Origin: a phage
Length of the DNA stretch: 64,000 bases
Reading direction: 5' to 3' (one strand)
Sequence record: PZ347661.1
Shown: positions 35 through 42,037 of the stretch, in pieces
Layout of the letters: the number at the start of each line of letters is the position of its first letter
How positions within the stretch are numbered: the stretch's first letter is position 1
Position numbers and translations under genes: made by a program
Notes under the pieces: model-generated
Told to the model about the DNA's origin: nothing
Databases searched by the model: none
The model's input: the letters and a program-made list of their open reading frames with translations, nothing else

Positions 35-349
35 ATGACCCAGAAATTACGTGTATGGCACATCCCCCAAGTGCCAATGAAGGCATTTCATGTAGAGACT
101 GATAGTCTTCAGGAAGCTGTTAAGATTAAGAATGCGCTAGCAGACTACGATCTATTCCAATATGAGAACAACGTCAAAGGCGATTATGCTAATGCTAACG
201 GTATTGAGATGTGGGATGAGTCCCTCACTGACCAAGACCTTATTGATATGGAATTGGATGACCGTTGGGTAGATTGGTATATTGAAACTGAAGAATATTT
301 CTTTGATGACCCAGAAGAGTATCTGAATTATCTAGCCAAGCAAGTATGA
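35..349 (+). CDS. hypothetical strongly acidic small protein
   Basis: 104-aa ORF; roughly 24 Asp/Glu against about 8 basic residues; terminator immediately downstream. Confidence 0.45.
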   Translation: MTQKLRVWHIPQVPMKAFHVETDSLQEAVKIKNALADYDLFQYENNVKGDYANANGIEMWDESLTDQDLIDMELDDRWVDWYIETEEYFFDDPEEYLNYLAKQV

Positions 350-395: not shown

Positions 396-425
396 GACCT
401 CCCTATTGAAGGGAGGTCTTTTTTT
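396..425 (+). terminator. rho-independent terminator
   Basis: GACCTCCC-tattgaa-GGGAGGTC stem-loop followed by a T7 run. Confidence 0.7.
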
Positions 426-450: not shown

Positions 451-639
451 ATGTATAAAGAGATTGCATTTTTCTCATTCTTACTTGGTGGTTTAATAGG
501 TGCAGGAATTGTAGCTATTTCTAATACCTACTTTGGTTCTACTCCAAACTCTCTAACACAAACCCTCAAGCATGAATGTGAATTGAATATCCCTCGTAAT
601 CAAAACTGTGTAATGCAGTTCGTACCGGAGAAAAAATGA
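451..639 (+). CDS. small membrane protein (hypothetical)
   Basis: 62-aa ORF with one hydrophobic helix IAFFSFLLGGLIGAGIVAI. Confidence 0.35.
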   Translation: MYKEIAFFSFLLGGLIGAGIVAISNTYFGSTPNSLTQTLKHECELNIPRNQNCVMQFVPEKK

Positions 640-896
640 ATATTCATAACCTACGTTTGGTTGAAAAACTGTATGAAGAATACAACGACAACCGGCAGCA
701 ATTAGCTAGTTTGAAGAAGTCACCACATATGGTGAAAGTATCATTCAATGATACGGATTTAGGACTACAAGCCCGTACAAGAATACTTCCTGAACTACTG
801 TCCTTTTATCAAAAGAGGATTGCTGTTTTAGAAAAACGCTTTGAGCATTTAGGCGTAGATTTATCACCACTCCCAGATGAAGGAGAAGAAGAGTGA
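636..896 (+). CDS. hypothetical protein
   Basis: 86-aa ORF, start overlaps upstream stop, same-strand operon context. Confidence 0.4.
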   Translation: MNIHNLRLVEKLYEEYNDNRQQLASLKKSPHMVKVSFNDTDLGLQARTRILPELLSFYQKRIAVLEKRFEHLGVDLSPLPDEGEEE

Positions 897-1102
897 AAGT
901 AACAAATCGTTCTGAGAACAATGAGGTAACTTTCGGTGATGTAGAGCCTGCTAATGGTTTTATTTATAACCAGACAGTGTGTCTAAAGATTCACTTACCT
1001 GAAGGTAAACCTGCTGCTGTTGCTGTAGAAACTGGCAAATCATTCTATCTATCAGCAAATACATATGTAACACCAATAAACCTGGAAGGATATTACCTTT
1101 GA
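893..1102 (+). CDS. hypothetical protein
   Basis: 69-aa ORF, 4-nt overlap with upstream gene. Confidence 0.35.
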   Translation: MKVTNRSENNEVTFGDVEPANGFIYNQTVCLKIHLPEGKPAAVAVETGKSFYLSANTYVTPINLEGYYL

Positions 1103-1284
1103 AACTTACCCAGTCCCAAGCAATCTTCCTTCGTATGGTTCAAGGTGGTTCTGCCACCAGCAACCGTAATAACAAAACCGCACAGTCTCTTAAGAAGCTG
1201 GGCTTAGTACAGTTCAATACTGGTCTTGGGTGGTCATTAACCCCTATCGGTGTACTTCAACTTAACGAAATGAAAGGTAACTAA
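1099..1284 (+). CDS. hypothetical protein
   Basis: 61-aa ORF, 4-nt overlap with upstream gene. Confidence 0.35.
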   Translation: MKLTQSQAIFLRMVQGGSATSNRNNKTAQSLKKLGLVQFNTGLGWSLTPIGVLQLNEMKGN

Positions 1285-1614
1285 ATGAAAACTTTACTTA
1301 AAGGTATTGCAGTAGCCGCACTGATAGCTTTGGCCCCAAGTGCACAAGCAATTGAACCAGAACCAATTCTGGAAGGTGCTCAGGCTTATCTGGATGACAC
1401 CCGTGATGCGTTCGGGCAAGGATTCTTCATGGGCAGTATGATCTCTTATATCGAGAGTACAAATAATTGCGTTCCTGAAGGTGTTAAGTATTCAGTCATT
1501 CTGCCTAAGATTGTCAAAGTAGTTATTTATGACTCTGCAATTCTCAAATTGAAGAATACATCTCAAATTGTTGTGTACTCAGTACACAAGGCATATCCCT
1601 GCACTAAATCTTAA
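1285..1614 (+). CDS. secreted/periplasmic small protein (signal peptide)
   Basis: N-terminus MKTLLKGIAVAALIALAPSAQA has n/h/c regions and an AQA-I cleavage-like site; 109 aa. Confidence 0.45.
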   Translation: MKTLLKGIAVAALIALAPSAQAIEPEPILEGAQAYLDDTRDAFGQGFFMGSMISYIESTNNCVPEGVKYSVILPKIVKVVIYDSAILKLKNTSQIVVYSVHKAYPCTKS

Positions 1615-1648
1615 TCAGTAATTCCATTAGCTTTAGGAGAGTAAGTAA

Positions 1649-2701
1649 ATGGCAAGCATTGACTCCTTGACTGTATGTAATTCACGTCAAGCTCGTAACT
1701 TTATTATCCGTGCCCTGAAAGCAGGTAACGTACCATTCCTGACTTCATCACCGGGCATGGGTAAATCTGCAATCATTCGTTCTATTGCAGAAGAATTTGG
1801 TATGAAGCTGATAGACCATCGTCTGTCTACTTCTGCTCCAGAAGACCTTTCTGGCTTACCATTCCGCAATGGTGACCGTGCAGAGTTTATCCCATTCGCT
1901 GACTTATTTCCTATTGAAGGGGATGCTGTACCGAAGGGTTATAATGGCTGGCTCCTGTTCCTCGATGAGTTCAACTCAGCTAAGAAAGAAGTAGTAGCTG
2001 CTGCATACAAACTGATTCTCGACCGTATGACTGGTCAGAAAAAACTACATCCTAATGTGATGATTGTCTGTGCAGGTAACAAAGCTACTGACCGTGCCAT
2101 TGTTAACCCACTGGGTACTGCAATGCAGTCCCGTGTGGTTCACTTCGAAATGGAACTTAACTTCGACATCTTTGTTGAAGACGTAATGATTCCTCAGCAA
2201 TGGGATGAACGTCTGGTTGCATTCTTACATGCTAACCCCGGTTACCTGCATGACTTCGACCCGGCACATAAGAACAAAACATTCTGTTGTCCTCGTACCT
2301 GGGACTTTGTTAACAAAGACCTCAAGAACTTGCCAGAAGGTGCTCTGCCTGATGAAGATTCTATCTACTATGCAGGTCACGTTACTGCTGGTAAGGCTAC
2401 AGAATTTGTTCAGTTTACCCAGGTGTACAATCGTATCATTACGATTGAGAAGGTAGTCAAAGACCCACTGGGCTGTGCACTACCGGATGATAACAACCTG
2501 TGTTGGGCTACTGTTAACCATCTGGCTAACAAAACTACTGAAGAGAACTTTGTTGATGTTCTTCGGTATATTGAACGCTTTAAAACGTTCACCCATAGGA
2601 TTCTATACTTCCGTACAGTAGGCAATGCATTACCAGATCTTCAGGCTACCCCTGAATGGCGTAAGGCTGCTGCTAATATCTCTCGCTACATTCACGGATA
2701 A
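1649..2701 (+). CDS. MoxR-like AAA+ ATPase
   Basis: Walker A SPGMGKSAI, Walker B LLFLDEFN, MoxR/AAA_5-like length of 350 aa. Confidence 0.75.
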   Translation: MASIDSLTVCNSRQARNFIIRALKAGNVPFLTSSPGMGKSAIIRSIAEEFGMKLIDHRLSTSAPEDLSGLPFRNGDRAEFIPFADLFPIEGDAVPKGYNGWLLFLDEFNSAKKEVVAAAYKLILDRMTGQKKLHPNVMIVCAGNKATDRAIVNPLGTAMQSRVVHFEMELNFDIFVEDVMIPQQWDERLVAFLHANPGYLHDFDPAHKNKTFCCPRTWDFVNKDLKNLPEGALPDEDSIYYAGHVTAGKATEFVQFTQVYNRIITIEKVVKDPLGCALPDDNNLCWATVNHLANKTTEENFVDVLRYIERFKTFTHRILYFRTVGNALPDLQATPEWRKAAANISRYIHG

Positions 2702-2708
2702 TCACAAC

Positions 2709-3884
2709 ATGAACCAATTTCCTCAGCACACACTTAGTGATGAACAACTCATGCGTGAGTATGACCGTATTCAGGCCCAAGCCTTCCTGGGCAAGTCTGC
2801 TGCGTTCTTTGGTTCATTACTGTGTAGTCTTAAATTCTCATGGAAACGTGAGGATTGTCCCACTGCATGTACTGATGGGATAGAACTTCATTTCAACCCA
2901 GACTTCTTTATCTGGATGTGTCCAGATGTAAGAGAAACAGTATTAATGCACGAACTATGGCATGTAGCATATCTACATGACATCCGTCGTGGAAGCCGTG
3001 ACCCGGAAGTCTGGAACCAGGCATGTGACCACTTCATTAACCTTCAGTTAGAAGAGGATGGTTACAAGTTCACTGGTATCGACAAGGGCATTTGCAAAGA
3101 CCCTAAATATAAAGATTGGGTCGAAGAAGACATCTACGATGACCTGATGAAGAACCCTCAGAAAAGGCAGAAGCCGTCAGGGGGTGCTGGAGCAGGTCTT
3201 GCTGGCGACATGAAATCCCCTACTTCGGGGCAGTCCCAGGGTGCTGTCGTCAACAACGTAGTACGTGCAATGCAGAGCCAGAAGATGGCTGGTGGACAGA
3301 TGCCCGGTAAGGGTGCTGGTCGTATGGAAGAGGTTATTACCCAATTCCTTAAACCAGTAGTTCCCTGGCAGGAAGTTCTGATAAACTTCTTTACCGACAT
3401 TGATGACACCCATTATACGTGGGCCAGACCTAATCGTCGTTACACTGACATCTATCTACCTTCCATGGAAGATGATGAAGGACGCTTACGACACTTAGCC
3501 TACTTTGAGGATGTATCTGGTTCCATTAGTAGTGATGACTCTCTGCGTTTTAACTCAGAGGTTGCTTACGTTAAGAGCCAATTCAATCCTAAGAAGATGT
3601 CCTTAATTACCTTCGACGATGTTATCCAGGAAGAAATAGACATCACTGAAGAAGATACTTTCGAAGAGATTAAGATTACTGGTCGTGGTGGTACAAACCT
3701 GGAACCAGTACGCGAATGGATTATTAAGAATAAGCCAACCGCTGCAATCATATTCTCCGATATGTATGTTCGCCCAATGGAAGAATTACCATTTGATATC
3801 CCCATCATCTGGTGTGTTCTGAATAATCCCAATGCTACCGTACCTTTTGGGGAGGTAGTTCATATCCCTAAAGGAATGAAATAA
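2709..3884 (+). CDS. VWA-like protein with N-terminal HExxH (putative metallopeptidase-like) domain
   Basis: HELWH motif near N-terminus, Gly-rich linker, C-terminal VWA-like region; directly follows the MoxR ATPase; start moved to ATG 2709 to avoid overlap. Confidence 0.55.
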   Translation: MNQFPQHTLSDEQLMREYDRIQAQAFLGKSAAFFGSLLCSLKFSWKREDCPTACTDGIELHFNPDFFIWMCPDVRETVLMHELWHVAYLHDIRRGSRDPEVWNQACDHFINLQLEEDGYKFTGIDKGICKDPKYKDWVEEDIYDDLMKNPQKRQKPSGGAGAGLAGDMKSPTSGQSQGAVVNNVVRAMQSQKMAGGQMPGKGAGRMEEVITQFLKPVVPWQEVLINFFTDIDDTHYTWARPNRRYTDIYLPSMEDDEGRLRHLAYFEDVSGSISSDDSLRFNSEVAYVKSQFNPKKMSLITFDDVIQEEIDITEEDTFEEIKITGRGGTNLEPVREWIIKNKPTAAIIFSDMYVRPMEELPFDIPIIWCVLNNPNATVPFGEVVHIPKGMK

Positions 3885-4609: not shown

Positions 4610-4682
4610 GTAGCTGCCTAAATAGCCCAACATAGTTGGGCTATTTGTGAAGAAACTAACTCAACCTCACATAGGAACCATC

Positions 4683-4925
4683 ATGGAATCTTTAGCAGCA
4701 ATCCTTGTTTTCTTATTCATATTGGCTGTATACCTTATCCCTACTATCATTGCTTTTTCACGAGGCCATGTCTCTAAGTGGGGCATTGGTGTACTCAATA
4801 TCGTATTAGGCTGGTCACTGGTATTCTGGGTAGTAGCACTGATTTGGTCACTGTCCAACAAAGGGCAGAACCAGGTTACAAATGTAACCGTTGTTCAAAC
4901 CAATGGTGGCAGTAAAACAGAGTAA
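4683..4925 (+). CDS. superinfection-immunity (Imm)-like two-TM membrane protein
   Basis: YLIPTIIAFSRGH...LNIVLGWSLVFWVVALIWSL resembles the Imm-family pattern; two TM helices; ATG 4683 chosen (GGA upstream). Confidence 0.5.
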   Translation: MESLAAILVFLFILAVYLIPTIIAFSRGHVSKWGIGVLNIVLGWSLVFWVVALIWSLSNKGQNQVTNVTVVQTNGGSKTE

Positions 4926-28187: not shown

Positions 28188-28679
28188 ATGTCAGAAGAAA
28201 TTAAAGTCCATTTCACCAATTATATCGGAACCAAGTGTGTAAATGGTTTCCCGATGAACAAAGAAACATACTGCAAACTTCGTGGCTGGAATGTACCTGC
28301 TAAAGAAGACCCACTAGAAGAAGGTTATTTAGTCGAGTACCCAGACTCTAAGTCCAACCATCCTCAGTTCCGTGGCTATATTAGCTGGTCACCTAAAGCT
28401 GCATTCGAAGCTGCATACCATGACGTAGAAAAAGGTTGTACCTTTGGTCATACAGTAGAGCTTCTCAAATCAGGCTTCAGAATGACCCGTAAAGGTTGGA
28501 ACGGAAAAGGAATGTATATCACCTTAGTATCTGGTGAAAATTGGGCCATGGATAAACATGAAAATACCGTTTGTGAGAAACGGGATTGGCTGGGTATTAA
28601 AACCGTTGATAACCAGTTTATGCCATGGGTTCCATCTCAATCAGATGTATTAGCAGAAGATTGGGTGTTAGCTCAGTAA
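28188..28679 (+). CDS. two-domain protein with C-terminal DUF2829 (Tad2-like) domain (putative)
   Basis: C-terminal TFGHTVELLKSGFRMTRKGWNGKGMYITLV ... PWVPSQSDVLAEDWVLAQ matches the DUF2829 pattern as recalled; N-terminal ~80 aa has no recognised motif. Confidence 0.45.
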   Translation: MSEEIKVHFTNYIGTKCVNGFPMNKETYCKLRGWNVPAKEDPLEEGYLVEYPDSKSNHPQFRGYISWSPKAAFEAAYHDVEKGCTFGHTVELLKSGFRMTRKGWNGKGMYITLVSGENWAMDKHENTVCEKRDWLGIKTVDNQFMPWVPSQSDVLAEDWVLAQ

Positions 28680-41593: not shown

Positions 41594-42037
41594 TTAACGG
41601 GTTAATTTATTAGCTGCAATATAAGCATCAGCAGTAGACTGGTCACGGTTCTCTGCAACAGCACGACTACGAGCACGGTCTTCCAGTGCAGTGTTATAAG
41701 ACTTAATCTGGTTATTCAGGTTAGTGTTAGTAACACTCTTAGCAAAGTTCAACTGGTCTTTGGCTAACTTATTGGCCTGGAAACCACTATAGATATTAGC
41801 TAATGAACCAAGTGCACCCAGTCCTAACTGAAATGTGGGTACGTTCATACCCAACTGATTGGCCGAACCAGACATGAACGAAGTAGGGGCAGATGCACCC
41901 AAATTCGTACCCATACCAATAGCTGCACCTGGGTTATAGTTCATAGCCGGGGTATTAAAGTTCTGATTGTTATTAGACATCCAAGACATAGCTGCTGGCT
42001 GTGGGGTTTGGTTGCCTGTTAAGAATGACAAATCCAT
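41594..42037 (-). CDS. virion protein (gp52-like position)
   Basis: 147-aa ORF, synteny. Confidence 0.4.
   Translation of the reverse strand: MDLSFLTGNQTPQPAAMSWMSNNNQNFNTPAMNYNPGAAIGMGTNLGASAPTSFMSGSANQLGMNVPTFQLGLGALGSLANIYSGFQANKLAKDQLNFAKSVTNTNLNNQIKSYNTALEDRARSRAVAENRDQSTADAYIAANKLTR

Follow-up and report, generated by a model that had tools for sequence, protein, structure and literature searches.

The gp17.3 locus and its gene neighbourhood

The open reading frame at 1285..1614 (+) of the window, that is, the whole stretch of 64,000 nucleotides of phage DNA analyzed here, encodes a protein of 109 aa followed by a stop codon and corresponds to gp17.3, which is annotated as a "hypothetical protein" in both St11Ph5 and G7C. 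Its product, which begins MKTLLKGIAVAALIALAPSAQA and is identical in translation to the 109-aa protein of the earlier note, matches phrog_11132 (E 4e-60) and is interpreted below as the probable precursor of a Rap1a/Tai4a-like periplasmic protein. The first 6 kb of the window are matched at 80-95% nucleotide identity by 63 phage records, all from phages of Escherichia, Shigella, and Klebsiella that are either classed as Gamaleyavirus (G7C-like) or N4-like and unclassified, with PE007, St11Ph5, and IME11 as the top matches. The window is therefore the DNA of a virulent Gamaleyavirus (G7C/N4-like) coliphage of the family Schitoviridae, subfamily Enquatrovirinae. An SD-like AAAGG (1273..1277, +), read from the sequence, lies 7 nt before the gp17.3 ATG, and the TAA of gp17.2 (1282..1284) directly abuts this start codon, a stop-start junction that suggests translational coupling. 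Intact copies of gp17.3 are present in ~57 phage records, and dN/dS within allele classes is 0.13-0.28 (0.13 in the comparison with St11Ph5), against ~0.05 for gp24; gene-wide dN/dS gives no sign of positive selection on gp17.3. Because of the SD-like site, the stop-start junction, the conserved anatomy of the product, and the low dN/dS, gp17.3 can be regarded as a real, translated gene under purifying selection, in agreement with the reading frame that the earlier note had proposed.

The gene is placed in the rightward early/middle block, among N4-type middle genes, after the RNAPII subunits and gp17. A GP17-family gene ("superinfection exclusion gene product 17"; PF17420, E 1e-46) occupies 35..349 (+) and is followed by a terminator-like hairpin at 396..418 (+), which has a 9-bp stem with 6 GC pairs and a T-run and coincides in position with the annotated stem-loop in G7C. 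The GP17 gene and the hairpin probably mark the start of the transcription unit containing gp17.3. Several small ORFs lie between the hairpin and gp17.2 (1099..1284, +), the gene directly upstream of gp17.3, while the AAA ATPase gene gp24 (1649..2701, +) lies downstream, followed by gp25 with its DUF2201/VWA domains and by genes for a dCTP deaminase, an Imm_superinfect membrane protein, and ThyX. The part of the earlier reading that placed a phage-encoded exported protein in an N4-type middle-gene block, between the RNAPII/gp17 genes and gp24, gp25, the dCTP deaminase, and ThyX, is thus upheld.

Two of these neighbours deserve comment in their own right. The Imm_superinfect gene (4647..4925, +; 92 aa; PF14373, E 2.9e-16), which is gp27.1 "immunity to superinfection" in the annotation of relatives, is the second gene of this block, besides gp17.3, to act on the envelope. 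Several RefSeq records, as well as phrog_1314, call the product of gp25 an "HNH endonuclease"; this label looks like an annotation error, since the Pfam domains of the protein are DUF2201_N (putative metallopeptidase, E 7e-57) and the VWA-like DUF2201 (E 1e-34). The mechanical ORF of gp25 (2625..3884, +) starts within gp24, and the 390-391-aa length of its homologues implies that the true start is likely at 2709.

Signal peptide, cysteine pair, and fold

Residues 1-22 of gp17.3 (1285..1350, +) are predicted to form a Sec-type (SPase I) signal peptide, which was called by hand rules based on charge, Kyte-Doolittle hydropathy, and the -3/-1 rule. An n-region with a net charge of +2 (MKTLLKG) precedes an h-region of 11 residues (IAVAALIALAP), the maximum 10-aa Kyte-Doolittle mean of which is 2.98, and a c-region (SAQA) that provides an A-x-A site with alanine at -3 and -1, placing the predicted cleavage at A22/I23 (AQA/IEP). 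The protein contains no lipobox, and its mature part has no second hydrophobic span. All 14 of the diverse family members examined, including relatives that share as little as 25% identity, have this anatomy, their AXA-type site lying at approximately residues 14-24. In the full-length AF2 model, the signal-peptide stretch forms an N-terminal helix of low confidence. The Sec-type signal peptide claimed in the earlier note is therefore retained, and gp17.3 is probably exported to the periplasm via Sec. The remaining mature domain (1351..1611, +), of 87 aa, 9.6 kDa, and pI 5.7, is predicted to be a compact five-helix bundle of the Rap1a/Tai4a fold.

Rap1a of Serratia marcescens (SMA2260; PDB 3ZFI/4BI8) is the founding "Tai4a" member (PF18602, IPR041238) and provides immunity to the T6SS DL-endopeptidase Ssp1, while Tai4 of Agrobacterium tumefaciens (Atu4346; PDB 6IJE/6IJF) provides immunity to AtTae4. 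These proteins, which carry signal peptides of 26 aa and 25 aa, respectively, act in the periplasm as pre-formed dimers that depend on disulfide formation, and their structural disulfide links a C-terminal Cys to one that directly follows helix 2. Each dimer binds two cognate Tae4-family DL-endopeptidases and sterically blocks the catalytic Cys/His cleft; the Rap1a family is further characterized by exquisite effector specificity. The Tae4 enzymes themselves belong to the CHAP/NlpC-P60 superfamily.

The two Cys residues to which the earlier note had pointed occupy corresponding positions in gp17.3. Cys62 (codon 1468..1470, +) is the counterpart of Cys78 of Rap1a and Cys80 of AtTai4, located in the α2-α3 loop, and Cys106 (codon 1600..1602, +), located in an invariant P-C motif, is equivalent to Rap1a Cys122 and AtTai4 Cys124. 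Both residues are invariant, 44 residues apart, in 19 of the 19 phage family sequences compared, and this spacing equals that of the solved disulfides C78-C122 of Rap1a and C80-C124 of AtTai4. In addition, Cys62 aligns to the first Cys of a Yersinia ruckeri Rap1a-family protein, and every Pfam Rap1a match stops at the C-terminal Cys, at profile position 90. From this correspondence, Cys62 and Cys106 are likely to be linked by a disulfide bond in the exported protein.

In Pfam, the window protein gave one weak match, to Rap1a (PF18602; 15.8 bits, E 0.021), which does not reach the cut-off of 27.7. The same profile was matched in a single register by 12 of the 12 family members scanned, the best at E 5.5e-5, and by nine of ten further proteins, again in the same register and ending at the C-terminal Cys. 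The gp50 allele of the Shigella phage Moonfish has 44% identity to the window protein (tblastn 8e-18); its depositors cited IPR041238, and it exceeds the Pfam Rap1a cut-off (29.6 versus 27.7 bits). A tblastn search of plasmids with the Moonfish allele led to the Y. ruckeri "Rap1a/Tai family immunity protein" (PF18602, 38.8 bits), to which the phage-family profile A4 was aligned by hhalign over 83 columns with E 9.2e-5 and a probability of only 59%; both Cys residues are aligned and a C-[VL]-P-E-G motif is common to the two. When the PDB was searched by sequence with the protein, P0016, and profiles A2 and A3, Rap1a was not among the matches, all of which were rejected as chance matches driven by the signal peptide or by low complexity. 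NCBIfam gave no match.

The structural models point in the same direction. The first AF2 model, built at full length from a shallow alignment, had a pLDDT of 74 and gave no meaningful Foldseek match. When the signal peptide was removed and divergent alleles were added, the mature domain was modelled with a pLDDT of 90 and a pTM of 0.82 as five helices, and Foldseek matches to Rap1a-type proteins appeared. Among 350,542 chains, 3ZFI and 6IJE/6IJF came out on top with TM 0.56-0.66, the E-values of these matches not being significant, and in two independent fold searches only Tae4-immunity proteins ranked first. The mature domain, as modelled, appears to adopt the compact five-helix fold of 3ZFI. 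The most conserved motif of the family, Q45-G46-x-F48-x-G50 (Q-G-x-F-x-G), falls in the long second helix, which may be the counterpart of the dimerisation helix of the solved proteins; by analogy with them, gp17.3 could form a homodimer via helix α2. Taken together, gp17.3 very probably represents a divergent member of the Rap1a/Tai4a family, in both family and fold. It shares with these proteins the signal peptide, the fold, the position of the Cys pair, and, through intermediates, profile homology, and it departs from them in the sub-threshold Pfam score of the window allele and in not being encoded beside an effector within a T6SS locus.

The distances to the characterized proteins are nevertheless considerable. 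In structural alignment, gp17.3 is only 7-9% identical to Rap1a, and its mature N-terminus is ~12 residues shorter; unlike Rap1a, it is encoded by a virulent phage, without an Ssp1/Tae4 partner and outside a T6SS cluster. Identity to AtTai4 is 9-16%, and AtTai4 belongs to a chromosomal effector-immunity pair, whereas the phage gene does not. In the structural literature, the Rap1a-type "Tai4a" proteins and the canonical Tai4 proteins (Rap2a/EcTai4/StTai4) are distinguished as different folds. The canonical proteins Rap2a, Rap1b, Rap2b, EcTai4, and StTai4 perform the same class of job, as periplasmic, disulfide-containing, dimeric, helical Tae4 immunity proteins, but they belong to this other fold family, and none was among the top fold matches of gp17.3. 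The "Tai4", "tai4 protein", or "Rap1a" labels found in a few 2024-2025 GenBank phage records are thus accurate, as far as "Tai4" is concerned, only in the Tai4a/Rap1a sense. A homologue in nr already has the name "MAG TPA: RAP1A...", and in public records of this kind the label had been reached automatically. A literature search turned up no account of a Rap1a or Tai4 encoded by a phage, whether Gamaleyavirus or other, so that such proteins are known so far from database labels only.

With identities to the solved proteins of just 7-16%, the Rap1a fold could have been re-used in these phages for an unrelated periplasmic task, such as the binding of another component of the envelope, of a receptor, or of a defence sensor, and immunity-type inhibition would then not apply. 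This alternative is considered rather unlikely, because the phage proteins have kept the signal peptide, the size, and a Cys pair with the spacing of the solved disulfides, because the top conserved motif lies in the putative dimerisation helix, and because proteins of Tae4 immunity alone head both fold searches.

Distribution and allelic exchange

The gp17.3 family appears, from the sequence collections searched, to be small and restricted to phages. When 1.84 billion representatives were searched exhaustively with HMMER, only eight proteins were returned at E < 1e-3, and two word-index searches added a handful of further members; neither the former nor the latter yielded a bacterial bridge or a close bacterial relative. 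Every contig examined that carries a family member is an N4-like phage, ~68-72 kb in size where complete. Among 50,697 cultured-phage records, the gene was found in only ~57 Gamaleyavirus-like genomes, amounting to ~90% of those that match the backbone, and no chromosomal copy was detected by blastn in 5,426 E. coli genomes. The phages carrying the gene were obtained from faeces, sewage, and river water.

The gene occupies one of two positions, either directly upstream of gp24 (the window, L002, and L020) or after gp25 (L005, L018, and L019). The latter arrangement characterizes a second, uncultured N4-like lineage, whose Rap1a-like genes are located at 8001-8336 of L005, 4322-4654 of L018, and 5001-5336 of L019. 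In two of these three loci (L005 and L018), an extra AAA/AAA_2 ATPase gene lies upstream of the Rap1a-like gene, and on the 3' side of the latter are found a ~160-aa gene, DUF7740, and a Band_7 (SPFH) protein. The presence of the same gene at a different position in the second lineage is consistent with mobility of the cassette. The Y. ruckeri Rap1a/Tai gene, which has a GTG start, is recorded at L016:3887-4231 on the conjugative MOBF plasmid pWKY (NZ_CP025801.1), with a tyrosine recombinase in the vicinity. Like gp17.3, its product (WP_158650689.1) is encoded on a mobile element with no recognisable adjacent effector in the annotated flanks, and it shares with the phage family the C-terminal Cys and a C-[LV]-P-E-G motif after the first Cys. 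Unlike gp17.3, it is a clear Pfam member (38.8 bits) borne by a plasmid, and its Cys spacing is 42 rather than 44.

Within Gamaleyavirus, gp17.3 forms a sharply bounded, divergent allelic cassette set in a conserved backbone; the limits of the cassette were placed at 1282..1628 by nucleotide identity to G7C and Moonfish. This identity is 88-98% at 1132..1281, falls to 40-68% at 1282..1578, and is regained at 1629..1678 (96-98%), remaining at 80-98% across 1629..2078. At the protein level, gp17.3 of the window shares 35-44% identity with its counterparts in G7C and Moonfish, against 92-95% for gp17.2 and gp24 on either side. Gamaleyavirus harbours at least four allele classes with less than 60% identity between classes, namely those of the window/St11Ph5, Moonfish/Jgk1 (to which P0012 is related), G7C/U1G/UE-M3/PhAPEC7, and phiG17. 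Since dN/dS within classes is below 0.3, this diversity is best read as that of old, deeply divergent alleles swapped as a cassette and not as recent runaway change under ongoing positive selection. Variability in the family peaks at residues 84-96, which are not securely mappable onto the contact residues of Rap1a. A second mosaic stretch is located at ~451..1102, where nucleotide identity to G7C and Moonfish is 28-48% upstream of ~1082; the small ORFs at 636..896 and 893..1102 in this stretch are missing from G7C or differ from what it has, gp17.1 being the only G7C gene at this place.

Possible function of gp17.3 in the infected cell

The genes adjoining gp17.3 are phage middle genes, and the related loci all belong to N4-like phages. 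A Pfam scan of the phage virion and lysis proteins, including gp50-gp54, the tail proteins, and the endolysin, found no Tae4, CHAP, or NlpC/P60 domain, and the endolysin itself is a GH108 muramidase with a PG_binding_3 domain. Because no Tae4-like amidase domain occurs in the proteins scanned, gp17.3 is an orphan immunity-type gene, polymorphic and resident in virulent phages. The absence of such an enzyme from the scanned phage proteins, together with the exchange of divergent alleles, suggests a polymorphic target of exogenous origin. Had the target been conserved, whether in the host or in the phage, its inhibitor would be expected to be conserved as well, whereas the polymorphism of the cassette points to an external, polymorphic antagonist.

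As a separate observation, a gp52-like virion protein (147 aa; 41594..42037, -) matches the polymorphic-toxin domain Ntox22 (PF15527) only below threshold (16.7 bits, where 25 are required; E 0.0077). It was rejected as a toxin, the match being probably due to chance; gp17.3 would have to be read differently if a toxin or hydrolase were ejected, which is why the match is recorded here.

Based on the predicted features of the protein and on the analogy with Rap1a-Ssp1 and AtTai4-AtTae4, a possible mode of action can be proposed for gp17.3. The product of this middle gene would be exported by the Sec pathway with removal of the 22-residue signal peptide and would be locked in the periplasm by the Cys62-Cys106 disulfide, folding as a five-helix Rap1a/Tai4a bundle. 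The pre-formed and probably dimeric protein could then act as a steric plug of the active site of a papain-like peptidoglycan amidase/endopeptidase that works in the periplasm, the candidates being effectors of the Tae4/Ssp1 type that neighbouring Enterobacteriaceae inject through their T6SS. In this way, the infected cell may be kept from lysis by rivals before the phage burst. Of the mechanisms considered, the best supported, quite possible if not quite probable, is steric inhibition by gp17.3 of a periplasmic peptidoglycan amidase that is both exogenous and polymorphic, with T6SS effectors of the Tae4 type as the likeliest targets; its dimerisation, the inhibition of an amidase, and the identity of the target are all suggested by analogy with the solved complexes. 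An anti-T6SS function of gp17.3, taken on its own, is a serious though tentative possibility. In Salmonella, the SPI-6 effector Tae4 plays a role in interbacterial competition and gut colonisation, and the origin of the phages from faeces and sewage favours this reading. On the other side, the benefit of T6SS immunity in a short lytic cycle is only presumed, and no cognate effector can be named because no close bacterial relative was found among the representatives searched. Still more tentatively, Gamaleyavirus and other N4-like phages may carry a swappable orphan T6SS-immunity cassette, the alleles of which would each be matched to a different Tae4-type amidase, rendering the infected cell transiently immune to contact-dependent killing until the burst; virulent phages would in that case be participants in the warfare between bacteria.

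The earlier note had regarded exported phage proteins of replication regions, in general terms, as often being superinfection-exclusion or envelope-modifying factors. This generic interpretation is replaced here by the Rap1a/Tai4a immunity reading, and superinfection exclusion is kept as its main rival. T4 Spackle (gp61.3) is a periplasmic inhibitor of the gp5 tail lysozyme and is presumably the closest functional analogue of gp17.3 among phage proteins. Like gp17.3, it is a small helical phage protein with a signal peptide, and its action is to block a periplasmic peptidoglycan hydrolase. In a Spackle-like mechanism, gp17.3 would inhibit the virion peptidoglycan hydrolase of incoming phages and thereby block genome entry, and its alleles would track the enzymes of these phages. 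Such a role would suit a protein that is predicted to be early/middle-expressed and exported, that is encoded near the exclusion-type genes GP17 and Imm_superinfect, and whose fold family plugs the active sites of peptidoglycan hydrolases; the hypervariability of gp17.3 would likewise fit an external polymorphic target. However, gp17.3 has no fold or profile similarity to T4 Spackle, T4 Imm, or T4 RI, nor has a target of this kind been identified, and superinfection exclusion is judged unlikely.

Lysis timing or cell-wall homeostasis is a further, distinctly less likely explanation, according to which gp17.3 would inhibit the host enzymes MepS, MepH, or NlpC or the phage endolysin, stabilizing the sacculus and delaying lysis as in the lysis inhibition of N4-type phages. 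The membership of Tae4 in the CHAP/NlpC-P60 superfamily means that host homologues might, in principle, also be plugged by a Rap1a-like protein, and the phage contains rIIA/rIIB-like genes in the same transcription direction as gp17.3; the polymorphism of gp17.3 and the muramidase class of the endolysin nevertheless disfavour this explanation. That the hydrophobic N-terminus is fortuitous and the ORF is not exported or not expressed is very improbable, given that the signal-peptide anatomy is kept across alleles with only 25-45% identity, that the bacterial relatives are periplasmic and rely on disulfide formation, and that the dN/dS values, the SD-like site, and the stop-start coupling argue for expression.

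T6SS immunity proteins have so far been regarded either as self-protection of the attackers or as orphan or acquired defences of the prey. If the T6SS-immunity reading of gp17.3 is correct, this logic would extend to viruses, with a phage shielding its temporary factory from killing by a third party, and the gene would represent a new class of phage "virocell-protection" gene, apart from anti-defence and superinfection-exclusion genes, that is under purifying selection in ~90% of a strictly lytic coliphage genus. If the target should instead be a phage or host hydrolase, gp17.3 would represent a new use of the Rap1a fold and would provide a function for a conserved "hypothetical" gene of therapy-candidate phages. 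The existing T6SS models of Salmonella, Enterobacter, and Serratia are suited to a direct test, for which the allele classes offer a natural specificity panel.

Elsewhere in the window, a protein of 163 aa encoded at 28188..28679 (+) contains a Tad2-like (Thoeris anti-defence 2) domain (PF11195, E 1.7e-22), and its gene is a candidate anti-Thoeris gene of an N4-like phage.
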